A stretch of 29,731 nucleotides of DNA, from UHGV virus genome UHGV-2199876; one strand, written 5' to 3'. Of this stretch, positions 4,750 to 26,724 are shown piece by piece. Positions within the stretch are counted from its first letter, which is position 1, and the number at the start of each line of letters is the position of its first letter. Below the pieces are notes generated by a model. The model saw nothing but the letters and a program-made list of their open reading frames with translations, did no database searches and had not been told where the DNA came from. Source of the DNA: a virus. The position numbers and the translations under genes are program-made.

Positions 4750-4756
4750 GGGTAGG

Positions 4757-5050: not shown

Positions 5051-5055
5051 AATTA

Positions 5056-5082
5056 AGACCCCATCTATAACTGATGGGGTCT
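5056..5082. terminator. Bidirectional terminator hairpin between convergent genes
   Basis: AGACCCCATC-tataact-GATGGGGTCT 10-bp stem with T-rich flanks, between the membrane-protein ORF (+) and sopB (-). Confidence 0.6.
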
Positions 5083-5098
5083 ATTCTATTTTCTGCTA

Positions 5099-7539: not shown

Positions 7540-7875
7540 CAAAAGAACACAATCAAAGATCGTAAAACAACAATAATAATTCACACAAAATAAAGAACAC
7601 AAATACAGAAAACAACAACACAATAAAAACAAGAGAACACAAGCTATAAATATTACACCAATAGAGAACACTAATCAAGAACATATCAGCACATAATTCC
7701 CCATTATACGCGCGTATAATGGGGAATTATGTGCTGATTTTCAGAACAAAGTCAAGGAACAAATTTTAATGTTCCGATATTGTGTTTTTATTTATTATCC
7801 GTTATTGTGTTATGTTAATTTGTGACTAAGTTAACGCGTTATTAGTTATCTTATTCTCAAATTGTGTTACGATAA
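7540..7875. other. tos-like region: telomere-resolution palindrome flanked by inverted AACACAA / TTGTGTT repeats
   Basis: Left of the palindrome: AGAACACAA at 7544, 7594, 7634, with 7665 and 7678 as variants. Right of it: ATTGTGTT at 7779, 7804, 7862. The two sets are in inverted orientation around 7685-7738. Confidence 0.7.
7685..7738. other. telRL-like telomere resolution site (54-bp perfect palindrome with a central CGCGCG)
   Basis: atcagcacataattccccattatacgcg | cgcgtataatggggaattatgtgctgat checked base by base: perfect dyad over 54 bp. Closely resembles the N15 telRL/telO palindrome as I remember it (TATCAGCACACAATTGCCCATTATACGCGCGTATAATGG...). Sits just upstream of telN. Confidence 0.85.
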
Positions 7876-7902
7876 TCCGAGCGGATAATCAGGAGAGGAA
7901 AG

Positions 7903-9816
7903 ATGAGCAAAGTAAAAATCGGTGAATTAATAAACTCACTTGTTAGCGATGTTGAGTCAATAGATAACTCTGACCGTCCTCAAGGGGAGAAAACAAAAAA
8001 AATAAAGGCTGTTGCATTAAAATTTAAAAATGCATTATTTAATGACAAGCGAAAGTTTAGGGGTAAAGGATTAGAAAAAAGAATTACAGCCAACACATTC
8101 AATGCCTATATGAGCAGGGCCAGAAAACGGTTTGATGATAAACTTCATCATAGCTTTGAAAAAAATATACATCGCCTATCTGAAAAGTATCCTTTATATA
8201 ATGAGGAGCTATTATCATGGCTTTCTCTACCTGCTGCCGATATTCGCCAGAGAATGTCAGCTTTACAGGCAAAATTAAAATTAATTCTCCCTCTATCAGA
8301 AGATTTATCTAATATCAGAATTGGCGATAACAAAAATCATAATAAGTTATTAAAATTATCAAATAAATATAAAGAGTGGCAATTCGCCATTTCTGATTTA
8401 ACTAGCGATAACTGGAAAGATAAGCGCGATTATTTATATAAATTACTACAGCAAGGATCTGCCTTACTTGAGGAGTTGAATCAGCTAAAAGTTAACCATG
8501 AGATTCTCTATCATCTTCAACTAAGCCCTGCCGAACGCGCATCTATCCAGCAACGATGGGCGGACGTTCTGCACAATAAGAAACGTAACGTGGTGGTCAT
8601 TGATTACCCCAAATATATGCAAGCTATTTACGATATTATAAATAGCCCTGCTACATTAAATAATCTAAACACTCGTTCAGGTATGGCTCCTTTGGCATTT
8701 GCACTTGCTGCATTGTCAGGAAGACGAATGATTGAGATTATGTATCAAGGTACATTTACTGTTTCTGGTAAGTATACCGTTGATTTTTTAGGCCAAGCAA
8801 AAAAAAGAACTTCTGATGATATAACCAGAAAAATATATACATTATGCGAAGCAAAAACATTTGTTTATTTAATAAATGTACTTCGCTCATGCCCAGCAGC
8901 ATCTGATTTTGATGATGTCGTTAAAGGTTATGGAGATAACGACACACGCTCTGAAAACGGACGGATTAATGCCATATTAGCAAAGGCTTTTAACCCGTGG
9001 GTTAAATCATTTTTCAAAGATGACCGCCGTGTTTATAAAGATAGTCGTGCTATTTATGCCCGTATTGCGTATGAAATGTTTTTCCGCGTAGATCCTCGTT
9101 GGAAAAACGTAGATGAGGATGTTTTCTTTATGGAAATTTTAGGCCATGACGATGAAAACACTCAATTACACTATAAGCAATTCAAGCTGGCCAACTTCTC
9201 AAAGACATGGAGGCCAAATACTGGAAACGAAAATACCAGGCTGGAAGCATTGCAGCAGCTTGATGACGAAATGCCAGGATTCGCCAGAGGAGATGCCGGA
9301 GTTCGTCTGCATAACACAGTTAAGCAGCTGGTAGAGCAGGACCCCTCTATAAAAATCACGAACAGCACTCTAAGAGCATTCAAATTTAGCCCTACAATGA
9401 TTAGTCGATACCTAGAATTTGCTGCTGATGCTCTGGGGCAATTTGTTGGCGAAAATGGACAATGGCAGCTGAAAATAGATTCTCCAGAAATCGTTATGCC
9501 TGACGAAGAAGAGCTGGAAGCAATACCTGAACAGACGGATGAATTATCAGAGGATGACGATCTGGATGACGACGAAATTGAGATAGAGATAGAGGAAGAG
9601 GAAGAGGAAGAGGAAGAGGAAGAGAGCGTAGAAGAACAGCAACCGCCCGCGCCTTCTTCACCTGTATCTAAGCCGGTATTTAAGCCTGTGAGAAATATTG
9701 GTGATGGATCATACGTTGTTGAATTTCATTATAATGGCCAGAATTATGCTTGGTCCGGCAGTGCAAACAGCCCTATATCAGCAATGCAGTTAGCATGGCT
9801 GACATATTTCGGATAA
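7903..9816 (+). CDS. telN: Protelomerase (telomere resolvase) TelN
   Basis: 637-aa ORF closely matching N15 TelN as I remember it (MSKVKIGELIN..., RITANTFNAYMSRARKRFDDKLHHSF, VVVIDYP, GRINAILAKAFNPWVKSFF). Acidic C-terminal tract. SD GGAGAGG upstream. Confidence 0.93.
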   Translation: MSKVKIGELINSLVSDVESIDNSDRPQGEKTKKIKAVALKFKNALFNDKRKFRGKGLEKRITANTFNAYMSRARKRFDDKLHHSFEKNIHRLSEKYPLYNEELLSWLSLPAADIRQRMSALQAKLKLILPLSEDLSNIRIGDNKNHNKLLKLSNKYKEWQFAISDLTSDNWKDKRDYLYKLLQQGSALLEELNQLKVNHEILYHLQLSPAERASIQQRWADVLHNKKRNVVVIDYPKYMQAIYDIINSPATLNNLNTRSGMAPLAFALAALSGRRMIEIMYQGTFTVSGKYTVDFLGQAKKRTSDDITRKIYTLCEAKTFVYLINVLRSCPAASDFDDVVKGYGDNDTRSENGRINAILAKAFNPWVKSFFKDDRRVYKDSRAIYARIAYEMFFRVDPRWKNVDEDVFFMEILGHDDENTQLHYKQFKLANFSKTWRPNTGNENTRLEALQQLDDEMPGFARGDAGVRLHNTVKQLVEQDPSIKITNSTLRAFKFSPTMISRYLEFAADALGQFVGENGQWQLKIDSPEIVMPDEEELEAIPEQTDELSEDDDLDDDEIEIEIEEEEEEEEEEESVEEQQPPAPSSPVSKPVFKPVRNIGDGSYVVEFHYNGQNYAWSGSANSPISAMQLAWLTYFG

Positions 9817-11841: not shown

Positions 11842-12033
11842 TTACTCCCCGTTCACCGAAAAATCACGATAGAAGCGTTTCCACATACGATAAGTCTGCG
11901 CGAGTTGTTCACCACGAAACATCGCCTTCCTGGCCTTCATGTTTTCCTTGTGAGACTTTCGATCTATGAACCAAAACCATTGCTGGAACACACAAAGCAA
12001 GAGACACAAAGATAATATCCACTGATTACCCAT
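11842..12033 (-). CDS. Small membrane protein (63 aa) translationally coupled to the repA stop
   Basis: The ATG at 12033-12031 overlaps the repA TAA (ATGGGTAA). Sequence MGNQWILSLCLLLCVFQQWFWF... has one TM segment. The ORF track's longer 102-aa version runs back into repA. Confidence 0.35.
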   Translation of the reverse strand: MGNQWILSLCLLLCVFQQWFWFIDRKSHKENMKARKAMFRGEQLAQTYRMWKRFYRDFSVNGE

Positions 12034-15000
12034 AGAAAGCGCCCTGCTCTTCGTAGCTGCATGAGCTATTCCCGGTAATGTATTCTCGTAACCGCCGCAA
12101 TTCATTGCTGGACAAGTGATCCATGAACTCTGTGAGATACAGAGATGCAAACGTCATAGCTATGCTGGCTGATGACCATGATGACATAGTGGCCAGCTCC
12201 TCACCGGAAAGCGCACTCATCGCCCAGGACTCAGGAACAGCCACCGGCAATACGGCCAAAGCCTCAGAAATTACTGAATGAGGGGCGTTTTGAACCTGCT
12301 CGTTTGTGGATCGCGTTTTATCATCCATATATATATTGAGATCCAAATCGCGATCCATTTCGATGGCTGTCTTCTCGGCTTTACGCGTTTTTAGGGTTAG
12401 GCCATCTTTCTGACGCTGAACAAGAATATCCAGCATAAATGCCGCTGATTCAGGCTCAACAAAACGCAAGGTTGGACGCTTATCGCCGTCTCTGCCGCGA
12501 CGTTTACCTGTTTTAAGGCCAAGAGAGTCGCAAATGTTTTTAAACAACGCTTCCGGCACTTTAGGCTTCCCTTTTGGCGTCATAAAACCACCAATGTGCA
12601 GAACGTTATTCAACAGGTCACGGCGTTCGGCTGTCATGAGGTTATCTCGAGCGAATTTGAGACGCTCCTGAGTCGCCTCGCCGGTCATAGTCTCAGGGTT
12701 GATACCGCAGTCGATAAAGTACTGCCGGAGAGTTGCTGATTTAAGCGCATAGAAACCGCGCGCCCCGACTTCAACAGTAGGAGTAGCTTTTACCTTGTAG
12801 TCGATTATTCCAGGGAATTTAGTTTTAAAGACATCATCAGCCTGCTCGCGAGTCATCGCGGTCACTACAAAATATTGCCACTGTCCCGCCTGACGGTATG
12901 CGTAGGTAAAATTGATGGCTGCTTCTTCCCGGTCGTAACGACGAGCTGTTACCTCATCTAAAAGCATTGTTTCATAGCGGCGAACTTTGTCTCGAGCACC
13001 ATCGAAATAGAATTTCAGCGTGCCTTCTTCAACCGGTAGTTTCAGTTCGTTCTCAATATCCCAGCGGACAAGTTTTGCTTGTTCTTCAAGCGTCAGCGCG
13101 CGTTTTTTTAGCAGTTCTTCACGCTCTGATTCTTGTGGAGTTTCTGTATTGAGATGCAGATCCAGTGTCTGTTCCCACACAATATCCCGCGCTTCTTTAC
13201 GCAGATCTTTACCGATATCATTCGCAGCATAATCGGTGGCCAGCGGCGATACCTTATAACCGTCGCTGTGCATGATGCAGATCATGTTGCTGGCGTAGTC
13301 GTTACGCGCAGACGCTTCAATTGCGGCTGCTTTAATTTTCATCCTGGTAAAGTCGGTATTGGCCACCCCCATTGATATACGGTCGCCATCGAAAACGACA
13401 TCCGTCAGTTCACCGTTCATGCCTGCGGTAGCAAGCAATGCCTGGGCGAATGCTCGTTCTATTTTTTGCGGGTCAGTTTCACGTTTTGCGCGAGCTTTAT
13501 CAAAGCCGATAATAAATTCTTTTGCTGTACGGTCGCGGCGTAGCATTTGCACTGCGTCGCTGGGTACAACTTCACCACAGAACATGCCGAAATGACGGTC
13601 AAAATGTTTTTGCTCAATCGACACACCGGATGAAATAGACGGGCTATAAATCAGGCCGTCGTATTTTTTGACCATCTTTTTCGGTTGATTGGTAAATGCT
13701 TCAACTTCTGGCTCTGGTTTGTTTTTCTGGTTTACACACAGAAATTTCTTACCAGGAAAATGCATTCTCAGGGTGGCTGTCACATCTTCTGCAAAGGTGG
13801 AGCTGTCGGTGGCCAACATGATTTTTTCGCCATCCGATACAGCTTTCACCACCTCGGTCATAATGCGATCTTTTTCTGTATAAAAAACCCGGATTGGCTC
13901 ACCTGTTTCGCGGTTGCGAACATCAACAGGTAATTCAATTACGTGGATCTGCAGCCATGCCGGTAAACCTAGTTCTTCACGGCGTTTCATAGCCAGTTCA
14001 GCCAGGTCAACCAGCAGATCGTTCGCATCAGCATCCACCATTATTGGGTGTTGTTCCGTTCTGGCCAGCGCGTCGATTAACGTATTGAATACAGCCACCG
14101 GGTTTTCCATAGCCCGACCGGAAAGAACGGCACGTAGCCCTTGCGTGGCCTCGTCAAAGCCAAAATAGTCGTGCTGGCGCATCAACGGTTGCCAGCAGTT
14201 TTTAACAATCGAGTTTATGCAGATGGTCAGTTTACTGGCGTATGGAGCCATTTCCTGATAGCCAGGGTCCTGATAGTGCAGGATATCGGCTTTTACACCT
14301 TTTCCTTCTGTCATCATTTCCCACAGGCCACCAATAAGGGAAACACGGTGAGCAACAGAGATACCACGTTCTGAGCTATGCATTAAAGGTCGTAACAATC
14401 CAGTAGATTTGCCGGAACCCATACCAGCACGAACGATGACTATCCCCTGTAGTGATTGCACATACTTCAGGACGTCATCGGTCATTACCGAAGTTTCAAA
14501 ACGCTTATAGGTGATATGTTGAGGACGTTTATTGGGATCAGTTATGCGTTCGCTGAATGAGCGCGGAGCCTGGGCAATACGGCACTTTTTATTCAGGCGA
14601 CGGGCAATGTGGTCTTTTACCGTAGCGCGATAGATATTTTCCAGCCCCATTTCACGCAGAACGATGCAGAACATGTTAAATAAGTCTGACGGACTGTTAG
14701 GAACCGGACAGGTTAGCATGCCAATATCCACCGCTCTCAGCAGCTCTTTGGCAAAAGTACGACGGTTATCCCGCTTAATTGTCTTCAGGCGGTTGAGCGT
14801 CAGAGATAGCAAATCAGTGCCGGTTTTCAGGCGGTTTGCAGTTGCAAACAGTTGACGTGCTGTTTCACGAAGTCCACGCAGTTTGTGCAGGTCGTTGAAG
14901 TCACTGCACTCCATTTGCGGATCGTCTTCAAAAGTTGGATAGACGCAGCGGACATCGTTGAATTTCGATAAGATTTCATAGCCAGTCCGCAGGCCGGTAT

Positions 15001-16021
15001 TCCCTTTTCCTTCTGTGGCTGATTTCCGGTCATTATCCAGTGCGCAGGTGATTTTTGCCGCCGGGTACATGTTTACCAGTTGTTCCACAACATGAACCAT
15101 GTTATTAGCGGATACAGCGACAACCACAGCGTCAAAGCGTTTATCTTTTTTCGTGGCAAGCCAGATGGATGCACCAGTAGCAAAACCTTCTGTAACAGCG
15201 ATGTTTTGCGCCCCTTTTAGCTCACCGATAACAAAGCAGGCACCGACGAAATCGCCGCTGGTTACGGCGCTGGTCTGGTATTTTCCACCTTGTTTGTCGA
15301 TTCGCTGCCAACCCACAATACGACCATCGTAACGACCGTCCAGGTGAGCCAGAGGGATAGCCATATACGTGGTTGGCCCCCTGCTCCATTTTGCGCTGTC
15401 GTGACTGGTCACGCGACGCACATCACACGAATTAAAAACGTCACGAATACCTTTTTTAATCGCATATGGCCATGAGCCGTCTTCTGCAGGAGCATGTTCC
15501 CACGCGCTGTGGAATGCCAGCCATCCCAGCAAACGTTCATGGTCCATTTGGTTGTTTTTCAGGTCATTAATTCGTTTTTGTTCTTCACGGCGACGACGTG
15601 CTTCGGCCTGACGTTCTATTCTTGCCCGTTCTTCTTCCGGTTGTGCGACCACGGTCGCATTATTCCGTTGTTGCTCACGGCGATATTCAGAAAACAGGAA
15701 GGAGAAACCGCTCCATGAGCCAGCATCGCTGCCTTTATGGACGAAGTTAATGAACGGGTAATCAATCCCTTTGCTGTGTTCCAGCCGGGAGTAAATTTCT
15801 ACGCGTCCTTTGAGGCTCTTTTCGAGAGCTTCTGGAGATGTTTTATTGTATGAAGAGTAACGCTCAACACCCCCGCGAGGGTTGAGTTGGATGTTGTCGG
15901 AACAGGCAGACCAGTTGATACCAGCCATCTGTGCCAGCTCGGTTAGTTCATCCCGTGCTGCTTCAATTAGCGAGAACGGATCGCTGCCAAAGCGATCCGC
16001 ATAGAAATCGTTTAATGTCAT
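12026..16021 (-). CDS. repA: Replication protein RepA (multidomain primase-helicase, N15 RepA / P4 alpha-like)
   Basis: 1331-aa ORF with Walker A (VRAGMGSGKST) in the central helicase region and a primase-like N-terminal part. Size and position match N15 repA. Confidence 0.9.
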   Translation of the reverse strand: MTLNDFYADRFGSDPFSLIEAARDELTELAQMAGINWSACSDNIQLNPRGGVERYSSYNKTSPEALEKSLKGRVEIYSRLEHSKGIDYPFINFVHKGSDAGSWSGFSFLFSEYRREQQRNNATVVAQPEEERARIERQAEARRRREEQKRINDLKNNQMDHERLLGWLAFHSAWEHAPAEDGSWPYAIKKGIRDVFNSCDVRRVTSHDSAKWSRGPTTYMAIPLAHLDGRYDGRIVGWQRIDKQGGKYQTSAVTSGDFVGACFVIGELKGAQNIAVTEGFATGASIWLATKKDKRFDAVVVAVSANNMVHVVEQLVNMYPAAKITCALDNDRKSATEGKGNTGLRTGYEILSKFNDVRCVYPTFEDDPQMECSDFNDLHKLRGLRETARQLFATANRLKTGTDLLSLTLNRLKTIKRDNRRTFAKELLRAVDIGMLTCPVPNSPSDLFNMFCIVLREMGLENIYRATVKDHIARRLNKKCRIAQAPRSFSERITDPNKRPQHITYKRFETSVMTDDVLKYVQSLQGIVIVRAGMGSGKSTGLLRPLMHSSERGISVAHRVSLIGGLWEMMTEGKGVKADILHYQDPGYQEMAPYASKLTICINSIVKNCWQPLMRQHDYFGFDEATQGLRAVLSGRAMENPVAVFNTLIDALARTEQHPIMVDADANDLLVDLAELAMKRREELGLPAWLQIHVIELPVDVRNRETGEPIRVFYTEKDRIMTEVVKAVSDGEKIMLATDSSTFAEDVTATLRMHFPGKKFLCVNQKNKPEPEVEAFTNQPKKMVKKYDGLIYSPSISSGVSIEQKHFDRHFGMFCGEVVPSDAVQMLRRDRTAKEFIIGFDKARAKRETDPQKIERAFAQALLATAGMNGELTDVVFDGDRISMGVANTDFTRMKIKAAAIEASARNDYASNMICIMHSDGYKVSPLATDYAANDIGKDLRKEARDIVWEQTLDLHLNTETPQESEREELLKKRALTLEEQAKLVRWDIENELKLPVEEGTLKFYFDGARDKVRRYETMLLDEVTARRYDREEAAINFTYAYRQAGQWQYFVVTAMTREQADDVFKTKFPGIIDYKVKATPTVEVGARGFYALKSATLRQYFIDCGINPETMTGEATQERLKFARDNLMTAERRDLLNNVLHIGGFMTPKGKPKVPEALFKNICDSLGLKTGKRRGRDGDKRPTLRFVEPESAAFMLDILVQRQKDGLTLKTRKAEKTAIEMDRDLDLNIYMDDKTRSTNEQVQNAPHSVISEALAVLPVAVPESWAMSALSGEELATMSSWSSASIAMTFASLYLTEFMDHLSSNELRRLREYITGNSSCSYEEQGAFYG
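15644..15659. other. sopC-like centromere site (TGCGACC-AC-GGTCGCA) inside repA
   Basis: 16-bp match to the inverted repeat shared by the four other sites. Same 7-2-7 architecture as F sopC (TGGGACC-AC-GGTCCCA). Confidence 0.55.
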
Positions 16022-16144
16022 TTTTTAGCCATTCCATGCGAATTATGTTTTTTCGGGTTGAAAAAATCCGCAGGAGCAGCCACAATAAACGCATCTTGAA
16101 TTGACGGAATCCGTCGCGTTACTGTGGCTGCTTCCTGAAAAGGA

Positions 16145-16172
16145 CCCGAGTTTGCCGACTCGGGTTTTTTTT
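16145..16172 (+). terminator. Hairpin followed by T8 between cB and repA
   Basis: CCCGAGT-ttgccg-ACTCGGG followed by TTTTTTTT. The plus-strand orientation is the strongest, but both flanking genes are on the minus strand. Confidence 0.4.
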
Positions 16173-16266
16173 CGTCTTTTTTCTGCTGCTGTAACCTGAG
16201 TCAACCCACAGAACATATGCTCTGCATTAAACCAGATTTACAGCAAACAATAAACCCCGTATTAAG

Positions 16267-16863
16267 TCATCTACCCTCAACCATGAATGATTTGATCGTT
16301 CCGACTATTTGGTGAACAAATTCAAGATCGCTTTTCCTGAAGATGGCGCGTTGTGAATTTGTTCCGTCCAGATAGTAATTTTCATCATCAAAACGGGCCA
16401 GGCGCTGGATGGTGATATTTCCTGCAGTATCACGAACCAGAACATCCTCGCCGGGAACCAGTTCCAGCGCAGAATCGACCAGGAGAAAATCGCCTGGCTG
16501 ATAGTTTCCCTGCGCCAGATTGCTGATAGTTAACGCATAAACAGTATTGCGCTGGCTGATGAATGGCAGGAATCGCTCAGTATTTGGAACCTGTCCTGGC
16601 TTCCACTCTTCATCAGGTCCACTTTCAGTTGTGCCAATAACAGGAATGCGATCAGGGTCATATTCTGTCCCATACAGCACCCAATGCACTGGCTTGCGTA
16701 AGCATTTAGCCAGGGCAATACCTATCTCCAGTGACGGCATTACGTCGCCACGTTCTAAGTTTTGGACGCCTGCAATAGAGATATCGACAGCCTCAGCAAC
16801 TTCTCGCAACGTCAGCTTCATCTCTAAACGGCGTGCTTTCAGTCGTTCGCCTCGTGTTTTCAT
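16267..16863 (-). CDS. cB: Prophage repressor CB (cI-like: N-terminal HTH plus C-terminal S24/LexA-like domain)
   Basis: 198-aa ORF with an XRE-type HTH (LTLREVAEAVDISIAGVQNLERG) and a C-terminal region with the character of lambda cI / LexA S24 domains. Divergent from the cro-like gene. Confidence 0.85.
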   Translation of the reverse strand: MKTRGERLKARRLEMKLTLREVAEAVDISIAGVQNLERGDVMPSLEIGIALAKCLRKPVHWVLYGTEYDPDRIPVIGTTESGPDEEWKPGQVPNTERFLPFISQRNTVYALTISNLAQGNYQPGDFLLVDSALELVPGEDVLVRDTAGNITIQRLARFDDENYYLDGTNSQRAIFRKSDLEFVHQIVGTIKSFMVEGR

Positions 16864-16886
16864 AGCTTAATCATAAATGATCTTCT

Positions 16887-16927
16887 TATAGCTGGCTATA
16901 AAATTTATTTATTATAGCTGGCTTTAA
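16887..16927. promoter_or_regulatory. Immunity operators: two copies of TTATAGC-N2-GCTATAA between cB and cro
   Basis: TTATAGCTGGCTATAA at 16887-16902 and the imperfect TTATAGCTGGCTTTAA at 16912-16927. A TATAAT hexamer lies at 16943-16948. Confidence 0.5.
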
Positions 16928-17176
16928 ATGCGATTTATTGCTTATAATAACCGCATGAAACCAGAAGAACTTATTCGCCACTTTGGCAGTGTAGAAAAAG
17001 CAGCGGCTGGGGTAGGTGTAACACCCGGTGCTGTTTACCAATGGTTAACCGCTGGAGAGATTCCTTCATTGCGGCAAAGTGATATTGAAGTTCGTACTGC
17101 TTACAAGCTGAAGAGTGACTTTACAACTCGGCGGGTAAAGCAGTCGATTAAGGAGAGCCGTAAGCGTGGAGCTTGA
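16928..17176 (+). CDS. cro: Cro-like small DNA-binding regulator
   Basis: 82-aa ORF (73 aa if it starts at ATG 16955) divergent from cB. Contains a GVTPGAVYQWL HTH-like segment. Confidence 0.6.
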   Translation: MRFIAYNNRMKPEELIRHFGSVEKAAAGVGVTPGAVYQWLTAGEIPSLRQSDIEVRTAYKLKSDFTTRRVKQSIKESRKRGA

Positions 17177-17876
17177 GTATATACGCAGCTGCGTCTCCAC
17201 GGCATTGGCTGATATTCATTATCGCCAGCGTGGCATCCTAGAGGTCCAGCTTGAGCAGATGCGTCTAGGCAGATCAGGACGCTTTAACAATAAACCAGTC
17301 CGGTCAATCAGTGTAGGTGATGATAACTCATACGAAGTGTCTGTTCCTGCTGAGCCGGTTAGATTCCACCAGGGCAAAACATTTAAACAATCATCAATGT
17401 TGCTCACTGATATTGATTTTCAGAGCGCCAGCTGGCGCAGGGCTATTGGTCAGTTGAATAACGAGGAATCAGCCTGGCTTTATTATTGCTACGGATGCAA
17501 GCCTAACTACAACAATGATGTGATTGTTTGTCAGTGGTTATGGCTTGATTTTCTGGTTGCGCATTCGGGTGGCGGGTTTAAAAAAATGAAGGCCTCCACG
17601 AAAAAAGCCATGAGAAAATTGATTTATTACGCGGCACAGCAGGTTAAGTCAGAACTTACGTGTGCTGAGGCAGTTGATGATAGAGAACAGGACAGGCAGC
17701 TGAGTTTTCTACTGAATATATCTATTGATAGCTGGAGACAAGATTATAAAGAACGCTGGCTTTTAATTAAGTCGCGATGTCTGAGCTTAAATCGAACTGC
17801 ATTATTAAATGCGGCGGAGAAGCGCAGTGAAATCATCAAACGCCATCGGGCAGGAAGTGCCATTCTGCCTTTGTAA
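17166..17876 (+). CDS. Hypothetical protein at the position of the late antiterminator (Q-like?)
   Basis: 236-aa ORF immediately after cro with a GTG start. Cys cluster YYCYGCKPNYNNDVIVCQW. Assignment is by position only. Confidence 0.3.
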   Translation: MELEYIRSCVSTALADIHYRQRGILEVQLEQMRLGRSGRFNNKPVRSISVGDDNSYEVSVPAEPVRFHQGKTFKQSSMLLTDIDFQSASWRRAIGQLNNEESAWLYYCYGCKPNYNNDVIVCQWLWLDFLVAHSGGGFKKMKASTKKAMRKLIYYAAQQVKSELTCAEAVDDREQDRQLSFLLNISIDSWRQDYKERWLLIKSRCLSLNRTALLNAAEKRSEIIKRHRAGSAILPL

Positions 17877-17883
17877 ACAAGTT

Positions 17884-18129
17884 ATGTTCAGGAAACCGTC
17901 GAAGCCGGAATTAAGGTATTCGGGGGTAAGAAATGAATATGTTATCTGGTGTCCAACTTGTGGTTACAGGACACGACCAGATAGTAATAAGCAGTCTGTA
18001 ATTGCCGATTGGTATTTATCAAATCAGCCAGGTAATAAGCATATAGAAAATCTTTGGATTAAGCGTTACTTGGAAATCAGAGAGGGTGCGACCGTGGTCG
18101 CACAAGAAAATGAAAATAACGCCATTTAA
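17884..18129 (+). CDS. Small zinc-finger protein (CPTCG motif; Lar-like?)
   Basis: About 81 aa from ATG 17884 containing WCPTCGYRTRPD. The ORF-track start at 17809 overlaps the upstream gene. Confidence 0.4.
   Translation: MFRKPSKPELRYSGVRNEYVIWCPTCGYRTRPDSNKQSVIADWYLSNQPGNKHIENLWIKRYLEIREGATVVAQENENNAI
18087..18102. other. sopC-like centromere site (TGCGACC-GT-GGTCGCA)
   Basis: Same inverted repeat, at the 3' end of the zinc-finger ORF. Confidence 0.6.
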
Positions 18130-18139
18130 GCAGGGGCCG

Positions 18140-18313
18140 ATGACGCATGATGAAGCAGAGCGTCTTTCAGATACTTATCGGCGGCGTGGTAAGAAAGTTC
18201 TGGTTGTTCGTTCTGATTTTTTAGGTGATGGATATTGCGTTTATGTTCATTTACCTGAATCAGAAAGAACACCAAAACCATCCAGAACATATCAACAGAA
18301 AATTTGGGTATAG
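18140..18313 (+). CDS. Hypothetical small protein (57 aa from ATG 18140)
   Basis: ORF in the early-right operon. The ORF-track start at 18086 lies inside the sopC-like site. Confidence 0.3.
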   Translation: MTHDEAERLSDTYRRRGKKVLVVRSDFLGDGYCVYVHLPESERTPKPSRTYQQKIWV

Positions 18314-18336
18314 ATAAACGTTGAGGAGAATTATTC

Positions 18337-18936
18337 GTGACTAATCAGATTATTTACGACAGGAAACGGTCTGATGTAATGATTGACCTTGAAACAATGG
18401 GTACTAACACATGTGCTCCAATTGTTTCTATCGGGGCAGTGTTTTTTTCTCCAGAAGGTGAGGAATTAGGTCCTACTTTTTATGTGCCAGTGAATCTCAG
18501 AAGCTCGATGTTGAATGGTGGTGTCGCCGATGGTGATACCATTTTATGGTGGTTGAAACAGAGCAAGGAAGCCAGAGCCGCAATTTGTACTAATGATGCC
18601 CTTAATATTAAGGATGCACTTTTTGAATTATCACACTTTATTACTTGCCATGCATGTAATTTAAAAAAATTGAAAGTATGGGGAAATGGAGCAACATTCG
18701 ACAATGTAATTTTACGCGGTGCTTATGAGCGCGTTGGCTTAGCCTGTCCGTGGGAATATTTTAATGATCAGGATGTTCGAACAATCGTTAATCTTGGTCA
18801 GTTTATTGGTTTCAATCCTAAAAAAGATATGCCATTTGATGGTGAACGACACAATGCCCTGGCTGATGCTATTCATCAGGCTAAGTATGTATCCGCAATT
18901 TTCTCCCGTCTTGTAAAAGGGCAAGGAGAATCGTAA
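18337..18936 (+). CDS. DEDDh-family 3'-5' exonuclease
   Basis: Motif I MIDLETMG, motif II VWGNGATFDN, motif III H-NALADA. GTG start with a GAGGAG SD. Confidence 0.7.
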   Translation: MTNQIIYDRKRSDVMIDLETMGTNTCAPIVSIGAVFFSPEGEELGPTFYVPVNLRSSMLNGGVADGDTILWWLKQSKEARAAICTNDALNIKDALFELSHFITCHACNLKKLKVWGNGATFDNVILRGAYERVGLACPWEYFNDQDVRTIVNLGQFIGFNPKKDMPFDGERHNALADAIHQAKYVSAIFSRLVKGQGES

Positions 18937-19355
18937 TGGCAAAGGCTTTTACACCAGAACAGAGGGAAGAACTGAATAAACAAATTGTGGAACTCGTGCG
19001 CCTGAATGGACGAGGAACGGTTAGGCAACTTGCGGATGAAACTGGTATTAGCCGGTGTGCTGTTAGTCGTTTATCAAGAGAGCTTGCTGCCAGTGGTGAT
19101 TTGTATATCTCTGGCTCCGGGATATTTCTGTCTGCACAAGCACGCAAGGACTGGCAAAACGCCCGTAAAAAACTATCAAGAGTAAAGCCGAAGACATCGG
19201 TAGTGGTTGATCCAGACCTTATCTGGTCATTACCTGACGGAGAAATACGTCGTTACGACAGGCGCTTGAACATGATTTGTCACGATTGCCGGAAAAGTGA
19301 AGTTATGCAGCGTGTGCTGGCTTTTTATCAGGGAAATTTACAGGAGGTGGCGTAG
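18936..19355 (+). CDS. Putative HTH DNA-binding protein (139 aa)
   Basis: GTVRQLADETGISRCAVSRLSRELAASGD has HTH character. AAGGAGA SD. Confidence 0.45.
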   Translation: MAKAFTPEQREELNKQIVELVRLNGRGTVRQLADETGISRCAVSRLSRELAASGDLYISGSGIFLSAQARKDWQNARKKLSRVKPKTSVVVDPDLIWSLPDGEIRRYDRRLNMICHDCRKSEVMQRVLAFYQGNLQEVA

Positions 19356-19645
19356 TGAATATCGACACCACGATAACGATCGATACGGCCCTAAATATCG
19401 GTCTGGCACTTCTCGGTTGGTTTTACATCATGTTCAGTGCGGGGAAGTGGGCGGCCTCTGTTTTTCTAAAGCAGTGGGGAAAGCACCGCAAACAGGAAAG
19501 ACGCCAGAAAGTGTTAGAGGCGTTCTATGACGCATTTGAACTTAGCCGCATTGAGCCAGGCACAACAGCCAAGATAGCGACAAAAGGCGACCTGATGATA
19601 GTGATGTTCCGACAGGAGAGAGCAGATAAAGGGGAATCAGCATGA
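19355..19645 (+). CDS. Small membrane protein (96 aa)
   Basis: GTG start with a CAGGAGGTGG SD. TM segment IGLALLGWFYIMFSAG. Confidence 0.45.
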   Translation: MNIDTTITIDTALNIGLALLGWFYIMFSAGKWAASVFLKQWGKHRKQERRQKVLEAFYDAFELSRIEPGTTAKIATKGDLMIVMFRQERADKGESA

Positions 19646-20301
19646 AATTTTCCAAATTTTCTGAGTTGGTGAATCGTATTTTGTCCAACAACCACAGCCA
19701 TCGTCGCGATATGGATGTAACAATCGTTATTCATTCGCCTGGCAGCATTGGTTCAACACCCTCAGTTGAGGTTCAGTCAATTCACGCTGGTTTTGATTGG
19801 GATTCCGGGAAAGTGCTGATTTTCCCAGCACAGCCACTGACCACGCTAACACCAGAACAGATTACTGATATTACTGATAGTGTGCGCAAAGGTCAGTCCT
19901 GGCACGCATATCAGGAATACAAGAAGCATAAAGAGCAGTTGGAAAAATTGTCGATTGAACTGGATGCTGCAAAACAGCGCGTAGCAGAACTGGAAGCCAA
20001 ACCTGTAAGCCAAACTTACAAGTTAACTTTTGAGCAATGGCTGGAACAGCAGCATGACAAAATTGATGTTGATTGTGGATGTGTAAGTACTGAAATGTTT
20101 ATGCACTGGATAAGGGTCGCGTATGAGGCTGGCAACTCTCCGGTAACTCCGGATGGTCATGTTCAGTTTTCTGTTTCACTTCCTGCAGCGTTTGGTGGAG
20201 ATAAATATTTTATTGATGGTGTATTTCAACCTTTGAGATATGAGCGTGATTGTGAAAGGGCGGTTGTGGCCGCTGGCGGTGTAGTTAGTTGGGTTAAGTA
20301 A
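19642..20301 (+). CDS. Hypothetical protein (219 aa)
   Basis: Start overlaps the upstream stop. Central coiled-coil-like stretch. No recognised domain. Confidence 0.5.
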   Translation: MKFSKFSELVNRILSNNHSHRRDMDVTIVIHSPGSIGSTPSVEVQSIHAGFDWDSGKVLIFPAQPLTTLTPEQITDITDSVRKGQSWHAYQEYKKHKEQLEKLSIELDAAKQRVAELEAKPVSQTYKLTFEQWLEQQHDKIDVDCGCVSTEMFMHWIRVAYEAGNSPVTPDGHVQFSVSLPAAFGGDKYFIDGVFQPLRYERDCERAVVAAGGVVSWVK

Positions 20302-20316
20302 TTTTCAGGAGGATTT

Positions 20317-20643
20317 ATGGCGCTGACACCGGCAGAACGGCAAAGGAGACGCAGGGAACGGTTGAAGAAGGAAGGCACATCAAGACGGGACTGGATTCTA
20401 GAACCTGACGAGTTACGTATGTTGGGGGAAATTTGTGTATTGCGTAGACCAGGGCGAGTTCCATATTCGGAGAACGAAGTCATTGGTTTGCTGATCAGGA
20501 AAAACTATAAGGAGCTGCAGAAGCAGCTATCTACTACTTGCCCGCGATGTGGTCAAAAAATGCCTGTTTCAGAATGCATTTTTGATGGCGAAGGGTCATG
20601 CCACCTTACAACCACGAGGCTGAAACTTGCGCTCAAAGTGTGA
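20317..20643 (+). CDS. Hypothetical basic protein with a C-terminal CxxC (108 aa)
   Basis: Arg-rich N-terminus (TPAERQRRRRERLKKEG) and a CPRCG motif. AGGAGG SD. Confidence 0.45.
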   Translation: MALTPAERQRRRRERLKKEGTSRRDWILEPDELRMLGEICVLRRPGRVPYSENEVIGLLIRKNYKELQKQLSTTCPRCGQKMPVSECIFDGEGSCHLTTTRLKLALKV

Positions 20644-20661
20644 CTGGTCACGGAGGGATAA

Positions 20662-20904
20662 ATGGATAAAAAGGCATTGCTTTTTGAAATGATACGAAAA
20701 CGGAGCGAAAAGAGCTTTTCTGATGGTGGTGATGGGTTTGTTTTCGCTTCGATGCTTGCTTTTGATGTTGGGTTAAATAGCAGAATTGTTAAAAGGATGC
20801 TTGATTCTGCTGTCCGTACTGGACTTCTTGAGAAAGTTGATCGTGGCATAGGGAGAGAGCATAAGTATCGGGTCACACAGCAGTTTACGCAGTTAATTCA
20901 TTGA
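20662..20904 (+). CDS. Hypothetical small protein (80 aa), possible DNA-binding
   Basis: ORF with a GGAGGG SD, preceded by a GTGAC-N2-GTCAC palindrome. Confidence 0.4.
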   Translation: MDKKALLFEMIRKRSEKSFSDGGDGFVFASMLAFDVGLNSRIVKRMLDSAVRTGLLEKVDRGIGREHKYRVTQQFTQLIH

Positions 20905-20932
20905 AAATTGACCGTAAAGTTTGAGTTTTATC

Positions 20933-20948
20933 CTGTAATTTTATACAG
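20933..20948. promoter_or_regulatory. LexA (SOS) box CTGT-N8-ACAG
   Basis: cCTGTaattttatACAGta fits the CTGT-(AT)4-ACAG consensus. Lies about 40 bp upstream of the 20987 ORF and overlaps likely promoter hexamers. Confidence 0.55.
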
Positions 20949-20986
20949 TATAAAAAACCTTTTTTAGTTAAATGGTATGAGATTTA

Positions 20987-21190
20987 ATGTCTGAAGCAGC
21001 CGTATCAACTCTTGAACAACTCGATTCAAATTTGAGAGATATTGACGCCGTTCTGGATCTGGTTAGCGTCACCCTGGCTTCTCCAGAAGCCAGCCTACAT
21101 ATTGGTGAGGTTTCACGACTCATCAACATGTCGCGAGAGATTGCCCAGCATTGTCAGAAAACTATCGCTGTTGAGCGTTCACATCATTGA
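20987..21190 (+). CDS. SOS-controlled small protein (candidate AntC-like antirepressor)
   Basis: 67-aa ORF directly downstream of the LexA box. N15 is reported to have a LexA-regulated small antirepressor, antC. Confidence 0.45.
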   Translation: MSEAAVSTLEQLDSNLRDIDAVLDLVSVTLASPEASLHIGEVSRLINMSREIAQHCQKTIAVERSHH

Positions 21191-21232
21191 TGCACACCCC
21201 GCCCTTCTGGACGGGGTAGTAAAAGAGTCTAA

Positions 21233-21520
21233 TTAATAAACAGCGCGAATATCGATGGTTGCGCCGCAGGCATGAGCATATTTAGCCAAAGTTTTCATAC
21301 TTGCCCCTAAAGGATTGCTTTCCAGGCGGCTGATGGCTGACGGTCGCAACCCCATTCGTTCAGCCAGAGCTGATTTCGTTAAACCTGCTCTTTCCCTCAT
21401 TTCGTATAACATTTCGACCATCTCCAGCTCTTTATCGGCCTCTTCATATCCTTTGATGGCTTCTGGAGTGTTGAGAAGTTTTTCTTTTACTTCGTTAAAC
21501 GGGATGCCTTTCGCTTTCAT
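21233..21520 (-). CDS. HTH (XRE-family) antitoxin
   Basis: 95-aa ORF with an HTH (LTKSALAERMGLRPSAISRLE). Its start overlaps the stop of the upstream toxin-like ORF (HigB-HigA-type order). Confidence 0.7.
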   Translation of the reverse strand: MKAKGIPFNEVKEKLLNTPEAIKGYEEADKELEMVEMLYEMRERAGLTKSALAERMGLRPSAISRLESNPLGASMKTLAKYAHACGATIDIRAVY

Positions 21521-21831
21521 CAGTTCATCTCCTTCAGGCGAGTTCTGGCGATTTCGATAGCCTTCACCGGTGTTTTCTGTGTCTTTTTTACAAATGCATG
21601 CAATAGATAAATTTCGTTACCAGTCGCGTAGGCGTACAGCGTTCTTGCGATGTTTTTATCCCCTACTCGTAGTTCAAAAAGCCCTCCACCTATTACACGG
21701 CTATGGGGCATCTTCAGTTTGTTGCCTTCCTTCTCCAGTCGCTCAATTAATCTGGTCATGCGACCTCGCAAATCATCTGGTAGTTCAAGCAGTTCATCCA
21801 GTGCTGCAGGGTGGGTTATCACGTTAAACAT
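21520..21831 (-). CDS. Gp49-like (HigB/RelE-superfamily) toxin
   Basis: 103 aa with the 'phage-derived Gp49-like' character (KMPHSRVIGGGLFELRVGD...ARTLYAY...IYLLHAFVKKTQKTP). The family is named after N15 gene 49. Confidence 0.7.
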   Translation of the reverse strand: MFNVITHPAALDELLELPDDLRGRMTRLIERLEKEGNKLKMPHSRVIGGGLFELRVGDKNIARTLYAYATGNEIYLLHAFVKKTQKTPVKAIEIARTRLKEMN

Positions 21832-21978
21832 ATTATAGCCTCCATAGCCATAAAATACACCAAAACAAGAAAAAAGCGCAAATTAAAAATTTCACTAAAA
21901 AGTGAAAAATAACACTGGATGTGTTCGTTTGGCAGAGTTACAGTTCGTGTCATTGAGGGGCAATAACCCACTAACTAT

Positions 21979-22218
21979 ATGAATTTGGAGGATATTATGA
22001 ATTATCAAGGTAACGAAAAAATGCGCGACGACGTTGCGGAGATAGCTAACGAACTGTATGAGTTGTGGCAGAAGGTTGAACGTTTCGAAAAGGAATATGG
22101 TTTCAACAGTACCAACCTGGCAGACCGACTGGCTGGTCGCTTAGTTGGGACTATGGGGCCAAAACTGGCTGAGTTGAACCGCTTTATGGCTGATGTTGAT
22201 TTCCAGTTTCAAGATTGA
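21979..22218 (+). CDS. Hypothetical protein (79 aa)
   Basis: ORF with a GGAGG SD. Confidence 0.45.
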   Translation: MNLEDIMNYQGNEKMRDDVAEIANELYELWQKVERFEKEYGFNSTNLADRLAGRLVGTMGPKLAELNRFMADVDFQFQD

Positions 22219-22231
22219 TTAGAGAGGCGTT

Positions 22232-22459
22232 ATGAATATTAATGAAATTCGTGGAAATATGACTGAAGCGGCCCTGAGTGTGGAATGTGTTATGCGTGGA
22301 TACCCACGCATTTCCCTGAAAGAGTTAAGCGAAGCCTGTTTTTTGAGTCAAGCTGCCGTTGAATTTATCATCGAACAGATGATCTGTTTTGGGGTTGCAA
22401 AGCGTAGCGGGTCTGGTCGATATTCTTTGACCGATGAATATAAGCAGGCAACTTTCTAA
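22232..22459 (+). CDS. Hypothetical protein (75 aa)
   Basis: ORF with a GAGAGG SD. Followed by a sopC-like site and a terminator. Confidence 0.45.
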   Translation: MNINEIRGNMTEAALSVECVMRGYPRISLKELSEACFLSQAAVEFIIEQMICFGVAKRSGSGRYSLTDEYKQATF

Positions 22460-22465
22460 AAACTG

Positions 22466-22481
22466 TGCGACCACGGTCGCA
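22466..22481. other. sopC-like centromere site (TGCGACC-AC-GGTCGCA)
   Basis: Inverted repeat immediately after the stop of the 22232 ORF. Confidence 0.6.
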
Positions 22482-22556
22482 CAGCACAAAAACGAAAAAG
22501 CTTGGCAAAATTACGGTTTTTAGTTATTGTTTTGTTAAGTTGGGTTTTTTGTACCC

Positions 22557-22582
22557 AACAGCCAACAAGCCGCCTTTATGGC
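22557..22582 (+). terminator. Rho-independent terminator candidate
   Basis: AGCCGCC-tttat-GGCGGTT followed by TTTTTTTG. Confidence 0.55.
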
Positions 22583-22681
22583 GGTTTTTTTGTGCCTGAA
22601 AAGTGGGCGCAGGACAAGTTGCAGCTTGTCCTGCGGTCAACCCATGCCAGAGCTATAGGCTGAACCTAAAGCCCACCCGCG

Positions 22682-23803
22682 ATGCGCATCGCCGGGTTAG
22701 CTTACCCAGGCAAAAAAATAATAGCTATGTTCAAAACCACTAATATTCATGGCGCGCAACTCGTTTGCGCAGATTCTCTGCAATTTATCAAAACCATCCC
22801 TGATAACTCGGTCAATTTGATTGCAACAGACCCACCATACTTCGGCGTAAAGGCTAACGCATGGGATAACCAGTGGGATAGCGATGCTGACTTTTTGGGG
22901 TGGATTGATGAATTTTTGGCAGAATTTTGGCGGATATTGGCCCCTAATGGCAGCCTGTATATGTTTACCGGCTCTCGCCTTGCGTCAAAAATTGAATTAT
23001 TAACTCGCGACCGTTTCAATGTTCTGAACCATATCATTTGGGCTAAACCCAGTGGTATGTGGCGCGGTTGTCATAAAGAAAGTTTAAGGGCTTATTTTCC
23101 TGCCACTGAAAGAATATTATTTGCAGAGCATTACGGCGCGTCAGGTTATGCTAAAGGTCAGTCAGGTTATGCTTCAAAATGTGCAGATTTAAGAAAAAAT
23201 ATTTTTTCTCCACTAATTGATGCTTTTTCGCTGGCTCGCCGTCAGTTAGATATATCAGCCGCAGACATTAATTCAGCAACAGGAAAGCAGATGTGTTCGC
23301 ACTGGTTTTCTTATTCGCAGTGGCGGCTTCCATCATTAAGTGATTTTAATAAACTATGCGAATTATTTCGCAGGAAGGCAGATTCACTCGGTGTCCCGTG
23401 TCCATATCCTTTTAATGTTGATTATTCAGAACATGAAAAGCGTTATAGCGATCTGAAATTGCGTTATGAGGAAGTAAAGAAGCAGTATGATGATTTGAAG
23501 GCTCAGTATGAAAATTTGCGCCGCCCATTTCATGTTACTGCTGATGTACCTTATACCGATGTATGGGAGTTTCCTCCTGTGCAATATTATCCTGGCAAGC
23601 ACCCATGTGAAAAACCTGCAGCGATGATGGAACATATTATAAAAAGTAGTTCCCGCCCCGGAGATATCGTTGCCGATTTCTTTATGGGATCAGGCTCTAC
23701 TATTAAAGCCGCGCTGAAGTTAGGTCGTCAGGCAATCGGTATTGAGATTGAGGGTGAACGTTATCTTCAGACAGTTGATGAAGTGAAAAAGTTATTTGAG
23801 TAA
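22682..23803 (+). CDS. Orphan DNA methyltransferase (N6-adenine / N4-cytosine type, DPPY motif)
   Basis: Motif IV IATDPPYFG near the N-terminus and motif I (FxGxG) DIVADFFMGSGSTIKAA near the C-terminus. No adjacent restriction endonuclease. Start may be ATG 22727. Confidence 0.8.
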   Translation: MRIAGLAYPGKKIIAMFKTTNIHGAQLVCADSLQFIKTIPDNSVNLIATDPPYFGVKANAWDNQWDSDADFLGWIDEFLAEFWRILAPNGSLYMFTGSRLASKIELLTRDRFNVLNHIIWAKPSGMWRGCHKESLRAYFPATERILFAEHYGASGYAKGQSGYASKCADLRKNIFSPLIDAFSLARRQLDISAADINSATGKQMCSHWFSYSQWRLPSLSDFNKLCELFRRKADSLGVPCPYPFNVDYSEHEKRYSDLKLRYEEVKKQYDDLKAQYENLRRPFHVTADVPYTDVWEFPPVQYYPGKHPCEKPAAMMEHIIKSSSRPGDIVADFFMGSGSTIKAALKLGRQAIGIEIEGERYLQTVDEVKKLFE

Positions 23804-23898
23804 CTGAAGAATATATTCCCCTGCCGTTTTTGATGGGGTTATTTCTCGCCGTATAGTTTCCAAGCCGAAACCTCAGCAACTATTGCGAGGTAAGAGAT

Positions 23899-24171
23899 AT
23901 GAAGATGGATGAACGATACAGCAGCGCATCTTATGGTAGTGCTGGTCTTACTGCGTTCTTTGCCAGCCTGTCATTGCAGGATTGGGGCTTCATTATCGGT
24001 GTCGCGTTCAGCATTATCCTCGGTGTACTTACATACCGGCTCAATAAACGCGAGCAGATGAAGCGCACGAAGATATTGCAGGACATATTGGATAAAACTG
24101 ATGCCAATAATATTTCCGCCACGGCGATGGTTATTGGTGAATTGGGAAAGAGAGCACCGAAGGAAATATGA
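23899..24171 (+). CDS. Class II holin (pinholin-like, two TM segments, dual-start MKM)
   Basis: 90 aa with two TM segments ([11 protein letters not shown] and [18 protein letters not shown]), like S21-type pinholins. Met1-Lys2-Met3 dual start. Overlaps the endolysin start. Confidence 0.7.
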
Positions 24172-24668
24172 TGCAGTCATCATTACGCAAAGCTGTCGCA
24201 ACTGCTATTGGTGGCGGGGCTATTGCCATAGCATCTGTGCTCATCTCTGGTCCGAGCGGCAACGATGGTCTGGAAGGTGTGAGACATAACCCCTACAAAG
24301 ACATCGTTGGTGTATGGACTGTATGTTACGGGCATACAGGAAAAGACATTATGCTCGGTAAAACGTATACCGAAGCAGAATGCAAAGCTCTCCTGAATAA
24401 AGACCTTGCTACTGTCGCCAGACAAATTAACCCGTACATCAAAGTCGATATACCGGAAACAACGCGTGGTGCTCTTTACTCGTTCGTTTACAACGTGGGT
24501 GCAGGCAATTTCAGAACATCGACACTTCTTCGCAAAATCAACCAGGGCGATATCAAAGGTGCATGTGATCAACTACGTCGCTGGACATATGCTGGCGGTA
24601 AGCAATGGAAAGGGCTGATGACTCGCCGTGAGATTGAGCGTGAAGTCTGTTTGTGGGGGCAGCAATGA
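24168..24668 (+). CDS. SAR endolysin (T4-lysozyme-like muramidase with N-terminal signal-anchor-release domain)
   Basis: N-terminal Gly/Ala-rich weak TM segment ([18 protein letters not shown]), then an E-x8-D-x5-T catalytic triad pattern ([16 protein letters not shown]). Confidence 0.85.
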
Positions 24669-25132
24669 GCAGAGTAACCGCAATTATCTCCGCACTGGTT
24701 ATCTGCATCATCGTCTGCCTGTCGTGGGCTGTTAATCATTACCGTGATAACGCCATCGCCTACAAAGAACAGCGTGATAAAAAAGTCAGTGAGCTGAAGC
24801 AGGCGACCGCCACCATCGCTGACATGCAGCAGCGTCAGCGTGATGTTGCTGCGCTCGATGCAAAATACACGAAGGAGTTGGCTGATGCGAAAGCTGAAAA
24901 TGATGCTCTTCGGCGCAAGCTTGATAATGGTGGTCGGGTGCTCGTCAAAGGAAAATGCTCTGTGCCATCCTCAGCCGAAACCTCCAGCGCCTCCGGCATG
25001 GGCAATGATGCCACCGTCGAACTCTCTCCAGTTGCTGGACGAAACGTTCTCGGTATCCGGGACGGAATCATCAGAGACCAGACAGCACTGAGAACGCTTC
25101 AGGAATACATCAAGACGCAATGCCCGAATTAA
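24653..25132 (+). CDS. Rz: Rz i-spanin
   Basis: The N-terminus [31 protein letters not shown] matches lambda Rz as I remember it. Coiled-coil periplasmic domain. Confidence 0.85.
24885..25091 (+). CDS. Rz1: Rz1 o-spanin (lipoprotein embedded in +1 frame of Rz)
   Basis: [21 protein letters not shown]... has a lipobox (VVGC), then a proline-rich stretch [19 protein letters not shown] upstream. Confidence 0.75.
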
Positions 25133-25173
25133 TCCCTCTGTATCAAAAACGAACTCAATTTGTTGGATAGTGA

Positions 25174-25485
25174 ATGAAAATTTATATTGCCGGGCCAATG
25201 ACTGGATATGAGAACTTTAATCGTGACGCCTTTAATAAAGAGGCAGATCGTTTGTCACGACATGGTCACTCTGTCTTGAATCCAGCCACTTTGCCTAATG
25301 GTCTGACACAACGTGAATACATGGATATTTGCTTTGCAATGCTTCGTTGTGCTGATGCTATTTTGATGCTTCCTGGCTGGAAAGCGTCTGCTGGAGCAAC
25401 TGCTGAGTATCATTACGCATACAAGATGGAGATGCCGGTATTCACTACGCTGAATTACCCGCCAGCTTGTTCCTCTGTAGCATAA
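25174..25485 (+). CDS. DUF4406-like / nucleoside 2-deoxyribosyltransferase-fold protein
   Basis: 103 aa starting MKIYIAGPMTG, with ...NPA... and ...LPGW... The family name is from memory of the motif only. Confidence 0.45.
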   Translation: MKIYIAGPMTGYENFNRDAFNKEADRLSRHGHSVLNPATLPNGLTQREYMDICFAMLRCADAILMLPGWKASAGATAEYHYAYKMEMPVFTTLNYPPACSSVA

Positions 25486-25505
25486 AAATCTCTTTGTTTC
25501 TCGTG

Positions 25506-25521
25506 TGCGACCGTGGTCGCA
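25506..25521. other. sopC-like centromere site (TGCGACC-GT-GGTCGCA)
   Basis: Inverted repeat 20 bp after the DUF4406-like stop and just before direct-repeat copy 1. Confidence 0.6.
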
Positions 25522-25532
25522 CATTAAATACC

Positions 25533-25700
25533 GCGCTGCATCGTCGCCGTATTTCCGCATTAACCATGACCGTAGCCCGACGGGGAACTCCTCTGCGCGA
25601 GTGTGCGGAAATAATCAAAAACGATGCACACCGGGTTTTTACCGCGCTAATGATTCGCGGGTTTGTCCCTCATGCTCGCCAGTCCTGTGCGAGGGTGGAA
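25533..25700 (+). repeat. Direct repeat, copy 1 (about 170 bp)
   Basis: About 90% identical to 26473-26645 (gcgctgcatcgtcgccgtatttccgcattaaccatgaccgtagcccgacgggg...). Confidence 0.8.
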
Positions 25701-25725
25701 GAAACAGGGCATGTATTCAGGAGCG

Positions 25726-25741
25726 TGCGACCGTGGTCGCA
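25726..25741. other. sopC-like centromere site (TGCGACC-GT-GGTCGCA)
   Basis: Inverted repeat about 25 bp upstream of the ATG of the 25765 ORF. Confidence 0.6.
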
Positions 25742-25764
25742 CGGTATCTTTGTCAGGAGGTTTT

Positions 25765-26472: not shown

Positions 26473-26645
26473 GACACATCATGCGCTGCATCGTCGCCGT
26501 ATTTCCGCATTAACCATGACCGTAGCCCGACGGGGAATTCCTTCTGCGCGAGTGTGCGGAAATAATCAAAAACGATGCACACCGGGTTTTTACCGCGTTT
26601 ATGGTGCGCGGTTTTGTCCCTCATAGTCGCCCGTCCGGTGCGATG
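26473..26645 (+). repeat. Direct repeat, copy 2 (about 170 bp), immediately upstream of cos
   Basis: Paired with 25533-25700. Confidence 0.8.
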
Positions 26646-26724
26646 GTGGAAGAAGCTGGATATTAATGCAAGTGATAATTATTCTCACCTTTGCGGGTCC
26701 TTTCCGGCGATCCGGCAGGCTACG

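Follow-up and report, generated by a model that had tools for sequence, protein, structure and literature searches.

Where does the centromere of an N15-like linear plasmid lie if no sopC array stands beside its partition genes? The question arises for the viral genome UHGV-2199876, a stretch of 29,731 nt that we analyzed whole and refer to as the window, in which sopA and sopB are accompanied by five copies of the inverted repeat TGCGACC-NN-GGTCGCA located in other parts of the sequence. An earlier reading of this DNA, here called the original prediction, had taken these repeats for scattered centromere sites like those of phage N15. We consider it very probable (about 0.9) that the five 16-bp palindromes constitute a dispersed centromere of the N15 type, made up of single sites for a SopB dimer that are spread over ~10 kb of the replication, early and late regions, with no sopC array.

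Five dispersed palindromes and the N15 centromere sites

An exact search of the window returned five matches, starting at 15644, 18087, 22466, 25506 and 25726 as originally predicted, and none of 100 dinucleotide-preserving shuffles of the window contained a single match (0 expected by chance). All five are one 16-mer in either orientation, with AC or its complement GT at the centre, and flanking bases lengthen the palindrome at four of them, to 8-2-8 (18087), 10-2-10 (22466) and 9-2-9 (25506 and 25726). With up to two mismatches allowed, no degenerate copies beyond the five were found in the whole window; with up to three, copies near sopAB included, the sole addition was a chance-level match at 16647 in the repressor gene region. 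The repeats have the 7-2-7 architecture that the original prediction had recognized in the sopC core of F, from which they differ by one base per half-site. The F-type core itself, TGGGACC-AC-GGTCCCA, is absent from the window, the nearest sequences being the five sites with two mismatches each.

Escherichia phage PhiR46_1, a linear element of 46,290 bp whose telL and telR ends are annotated, matches the window at 99.6% identity, and phage YDC107_1, assigned to Ravinvirus (the genus of N15), does so at 98%; the window belongs to an N15-like linear plasmid-prophage from E. coli. A scan of the whole replicon for the 16-mer, which the original prediction had called for, gave the identical five sites and no further copies in the complete PhiR46_1 replicon. 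In its linear prophage form the sites map to 7.9–18.0 kb and sopAB to 43.7–45.8 kb, at the opposite end of the molecule. The window sites are single and spread over 15644–25741, the nearest being 8.4 kb from the start of sopA, and a search for a tandem array near sopAB (3500–8500) found none, only an AT-rich run of 13 bp in 2.4 copies. The predicted lack of a site beside sopAB was thus borne out, as was the presence of a terminator directly after sopB, a bidirectional hairpin with a 10-bp stem (5056–5082).

The core of the five sites, GTGCGACCNNGGTCGCAC, equals the published core of N15 IR1–IR4 at all 14 specified bases; the oligonucleotides that rebuilt the N15 centromere carry IR1–IR4 as GTGCGACC-(AC/TC/AT/AC)-GGTCGCAC (PMC7205306, Table 4). 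Our scan of the N15 genome found four sites, at 33480 (in repA), at 35931 (after Q), at 41125, which ends 21 bp ahead of the annotated −35 of the late promoter, and at 45562 (IR4, after gene 58), which overlaps an annotated stem-loop, a putative terminator. Phage phiKO2 carries the core four times, in the N15 slots, and its GenBank record labels these copies putative plasmid partitioning sites. Four of the five window sites occupy the slots of N15 and phiKO2, namely in repA, after Q, 5' of the late promoter and after the DUF4406 gene, and are orthologues of IR1–IR4. The flanks of sites 1–3 are visibly homologous across the window, N15 and phiKO2: those of site 2 correspond to N15 35931 and phiKO2 40346, and the promoter region at site 3 aligns with the late promoter region of N15. 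Sites 1 and 2 are 2443 bp apart in the window, 2451 bp in N15 and 2440 bp in phiKO2. Site 1 lies inside the repA coding sequence (12026–16021, minus strand), where the original prediction had placed it, at codons that are homologous in N15, phiKO2, Klebsiella phage 48ST307 and PY54. In the NC_001901 record of N15, IR1 (33480–33495) reads AGCGACCACGGTCGCA (AGCGACC...), with one palindrome mismatch, where the oligonucleotide in Table 4 of PMC7205306 has TGCGACC.

We also scanned IMG/VR for the motif; the counts cover the matches listed, and most loci with a single site look like chance matches. All of the loci with at least two sites (18 of 18) hold N15-like genes, and 83 of the 101 single-site loci do not. 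On the N15-like contigs, the RepA gene holds 10 sites, and 14 follow Q, 15 gp51 and 17 the DUF4406 gene. The identical core, together with the closely N15-like sopAB, supports the reading of the repeats as N15-style scattered Sop centromere sites. The accompanying suggestion that their number and positions might differ from those of N15 gained weak support, as the fifth site is extra and the other four positions are the slots of N15 and phiKO2. On this reading, the five repeats are an already known kind of centromere, that of N15, with a minor variation in number. The N15 Sop system with dispersed IR1–IR4 was reportedly the subject of Ravin & Lane 1999, Grigoriev & Lobocka 2001 and Ravin, Rech & Lane 2008.

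SopA and SopB of the window are 93% and 74% identical to the N15 proteins, respectively. SopB matches the Pfam family SoPB_HTH (E=1.6e-23) and the structure of the F SopB DNA-binding domain (3MKY, E=6e-39), and it retains a DGSRRRK patch of the ParB type. Domain swaps located all sequence specificity of N15 SopB in residues 179–200, and the residues next to Arg190 are thought to read the one base per half-site by which the N15 and F sites are set apart (PMC2910045). The specificity segment has 17 of 22 residues in common with N15. Around the arginine, the recognition helix reads D-R-N in the window, N15, phiKO2 and the close relative NZ_CP148365.1, and S-R-K in F and PY54; the sites covary with it, D-R-N occurring with the C-type site and S-R-K with the G-type site (F, PY54). 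The repA codons that hold site 1 carry a G-type palindrome in PY54, where the RepA peptide is GTTVP versus ATVVA in the others, a shift which argues that the DNA site, not the protein sequence, is maintained. Such switching of a repA-embedded site with the SopB helix, N15-type versus PY54/F-type, is a case of a DNA site overriding protein-coding constraint. The covariation of helix and site is the best evidence here for the inference that SopB reads the sites.

By homology with N15 and F, SopB would bind each palindrome through its helix-turn-helix and could then nucleate a bigger complex through the ParB-type arginine patch. SopA would place these complexes on the nucleoid so that each daughter cell receives one copy, and the low-copy linear prophage would be inherited. 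When the four IR sites are set in an array, N15 SopB gathers on them in foci (PMC7205306). Site 3, which, like its N15 counterpart, stands just 5' of the late promoter (20 bp), may in addition couple SopB binding to late transcription. The N15 Sop system is reported to have a role in late gene expression (Ravin, Rech & Lane 2008), and the conserved placement of site 3 beside the late promoter fits that reported role.

Some points weigh against a dispersed SopB centromere in this element. The specificity segment of SopB differs from that of N15 at 5 of 22 positions, the residues beside the conserved arginine being N15-like, and SopB binding, partition and a link to late expression are attributed to the window element by homology. 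All the palindromes are also able to form RNA hairpins, and site 5 scores as weakly terminator-like, so the sites may have a second role.

The fifth site and the cargo segment

Two of the sites (25505–25522 and 25725–25742) bracket direct-repeat copy 1 (25533–25719) just before the moron open reading frame (ORF), in agreement with the original prediction. Site 5 lies within a ~950-bp segment that is bounded by the ~190-bp direct repeat, the copies of which are 87–98% identical, and between the copies are site 5 and the cargo ORF (25766–26362). The close relative NZ_CP148365.1 (pZ1323HEC0355-3) has no cargo segment and exactly four sites: site 4, with the same flanks, is the sole IR4, and site 5 is missing. 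Its single repeat copy (21100–21270) corresponds to copy 1 in its left part and to copy 2 in its right part, a hybrid of the kind left either by deletion between repeats or by a recombination event that brought in the cargo. The fifth site would have come from another N15-like phage through recombination, or the four-site relatives would have lost it through repeat-mediated deletion. Because site 5 and its flanks have 22 nt in common with N15 IR4, the match suggests that site 5 was once the IR4 of another N15-like phage. The full arrangement is present in ~23 of 5,426 complete E. coli genomes.

Five sites are not unusual, because the number varies among relatives: N15 and phiKO2 have four each, the window lineage four or five, 48ST307 six and PY54 eight (F type). 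In 48ST307 a tandem pair, 47 bp apart, occupies the IR3 slot (15133 and 15180), and one site lies in the head genes (27548), outside the usual slots. Pairs in the IR4 slot of other IMG/VR contigs, among the matches listed, are 155 and 181 bp apart. The direct repeat of the window was not found between the IR4-slot pairs of other relatives, and the intervening DNA there is unrelated to it. We conclude that five sites are normal variation in this family.

Whether site 5 contributes to partition is an evenly balanced matter: sites 1–4 could be the working centromeres and site 5 a passenger of the cargo, which would bind SopB with no measurable gain in stability or regulation. NZ_CP148365.1 manages without site 5, and the 22-nt match with IR4 points to an origin in another N15-like phage. 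A single site can stabilize a plasmid in N15, where sopAB acts on plasmids carrying only the repA site, with <0.1% loss per generation (PMC2847241). However, doubled sites in the IR4 slot recur in relatives, at spacings of 155, 181 and 220 bp, with unrelated DNA between them, which could reflect selection for doubling, and SopB bound at site 5, 24 bp ahead of the start of the cargo ORF, could affect the cargo gene. A further step along this line, which we regard as rather unlikely, is that SopB controls the cargo gene through site 5, keeping it silent in the prophage or linking it to late expression, and more generally that IR4-slot palindromes are junctions for the exchange of late-region cargo among N15-like phages, which would explain the recurrence of doubled sites with varied spacings and intervening DNA in other relatives. 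The four-site pZ1323HEC0355-3 and the five-site window element form a natural pair for relating site number and placement to the stability of a linear plasmid, and the same pair bears on whether SopB changes expression when it is bound beside a promoter or a cargo gene.

The cargo ORF has no Pfam match, and its match in PHROGs is phrog_2571, a family with no assigned function, of whose 291-position profile it covers positions 1–200. PhiR46_1 has a full version of 286 amino acids (18054–18914) together with ~830 bp of extra DNA, and the window ORF looks truncated by a deletion near 26350. The full IR4-cargo-cos region was also matched in chromosome-labelled records of 4.7–5.1 Mb (NZ_CP178648.1, NZ_CP135957.1 and NZ_OY757949.1); an N15-like element may have integrated there, a lambdoid prophage may have the module in common, or the records may be misassembled.

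Possible hairpin and operator roles

The palindromes might mainly be transcript hairpins that close transcription units as intrinsic terminators or act on RNA stability there, and not centromeres. All five fold as GC-rich hairpins of 7 to 9 bp, four of the five lie directly past ORF ends, site 5 was flagged as terminator-like, and IR4 of N15 overlaps the stem-loop annotated as a putative terminator. However, sites 1–4 have no U-tract, site 1 is internal to the repA coding sequence, and the late promoter already has a proper terminator (22567–22587). A terminator does not need a 14-base core that is identical across sites and relatives, and the C-to-G switch of the core together with the SopB helix in PY54 and F would be left unexplained, so we give this reading very little credence. 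A terminator as the main role was rejected, since any palindrome folds and site 5 alone has even a weak T-rich tail. On the minus strand at site 3 (22458–22484), TTTTT follows the palindrome, which by eye has a terminator-like shape for leftward transcription; this shape is not listed by the terminator scan, and N15 has no A-run.

It is scarcely credible that the sites are operators of another phage regulator, such as the small winged-helix gp51-like protein, and not SopB sites: site 3 is 7 bp past the gp51-like ORF, which has weak winged helix-turn-helix similarity below the Pfam cut-off, and 20 bp before the late promoter, but the identical core is the experimentally used SopB site of N15, the type of site changes together with the SopB helix between the N15 type and the F/PY54 type, and no evidence ties another protein to the sites.

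Gene layout and comparison with known systems

The genes around the proposed dispersed centromere are arranged in the order of N15: tail fibre genes, sopB, sopA, telRL, protelomerase, repA, repressor with cro, and Q, followed by early genes, a RelE/ParE pair, gp50- and gp51-like ORFs, the late promoter, a methylase and lysis genes, with the DUF4406 ORF and then cos and the terminase genes at the right end (Table 1). Position 1 of PhiR46_1 (telL) corresponds to window position 7713. The lineage of the window also includes many plasmids of E. coli, E. albertii, E. fergusonii and Shigella. In YDC107_1 (CP025712.1), the telN-repA arm is duplicated in inverted orientation (34650–46300), so that the protelomerase and repA genes both occur twice; the assembly seems to have run on past a hairpin telomere, which explains a sixth copy of the motif there.

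Table 1. Palindromic sites and neighbouring features of the window (coordinates in the 29,731-nt stretch)
Feature	Position	Strand	Sequence	Remarks
Terminator-like bidirectional hairpin, 10-bp stem	5056..5082			directly after sopB stop
sopB, ParB-type centromere-binding protein, 329 amino acids	5099..6088	-		homology to N15/F SopB
sopA, partition ATPase, 389 amino acids	6085..7254	-		93% identity to N15 SopA
telRL palindrome, telomere resolution site	7689..7734			linear prophage ends map here
Protelomerase gene, telN-like	7903..9816	+		ortholog annotated protelomerase in near-identical plasmids
repA, replication protein, 1331 amino acids	12026..16021	-		holds site 1
Site 1 (IR1 slot)	15644..15659		TGCGACCACGGTCGCA	within repA, ~365 nt from repA start
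Q-like late antiterminator gene	17166..17876	+		Pfam Phage_antiter_Q, E=4e-85
Site 2 (IR2 slot)	18087..18102		TGCGACCGTGGTCGCA	211 bp 3' of Q antiterminator gene
gp51-like small ORF	22232..22459	+		before site 3; phrog_331; 'putative gp51' in YDC107_1
Site 3 (IR3 slot)	22466..22481			7 bp past gp51-like ORF; 20 bp 5' of late-promoter -35
Late promoter-like TTGGCA-17-TATTGT (22502-22530), then terminator (22567-22587)	22502..22587	+		arranged as in N15
DUF4406 ORF, N15 gp57-like	25174..25485	+		before site 4; Pfam DUF4406, E=3.7e-34
Site 4 (IR4 slot, IR4a)	25506..25521			20 bp past DUF4406 ORF
Direct-repeat copy 1	25533..25719	+		between sites 4 and 5
Site 5 (extra, IR4b)	25726..25741			24 bp 5' of cargo ORF start codon
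Cargo (moron) ORF, 198 amino acids	25766..26362	+		truncated phrog_2571 member
Direct-repeat copy 2	26483..26670	+		5' of cos/Nu1 region

The finding extends known biology and opens no new question. The PhiR46_1 record has no annotation of the sites, and marking them there would be useful, with little import beyond annotation.

The window sites resemble the sopC sites of F in having a 7-2-7 palindrome with AC at its centre and, in F, a homologous SopB that binds it. They differ in that F has tandem 43-bp repeats beside sopB with one site each, whereas the window has neither an array nor a G-type site, and in the helix, S-R-K in F and D-R-N in the window. The spyAB system of PY54 is closer in arrangement, PY54 being a linear phage-plasmid with dispersed palindromes, one of them within repA, at the codons of site 1, and another past its DUF4406 gene. 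Its eight sites (508, 6566, 26513, 31240, 34394, 39870, 40976 and 44409) are, however, TGGGACC-NN-GGTCCCA with no C-type site among them, and the helix of its SopB homologue is S-R-K. The six sites of 48ST307 reflect a variation in number other than the doubled IR4 slot of the window. phiKO2 agrees with the window in its four sites of the same core and slots, and its sopAB DNA is 75–76% identical to that of the window.

N15 differs from the window in having four sites and not five, the IR4 slot of the window being doubled around the cargo segment, and in site centres that are AC, TC, AT and AC in N15 and all AC in the window. The RefSeq IR1 of N15 has one mismatch whereas site 1 of the window is a perfect palindrome, and the IR4 flanks and the late-region cargo are not those of the window. 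The two elements are alike in the 14 bases of the core, the four gene slots, the IR1–IR2 spacing and the position of site 3 ~20 bp 5' of the late promoter, and in both of them sopAB adjoins telRL with no centromere adjacent.

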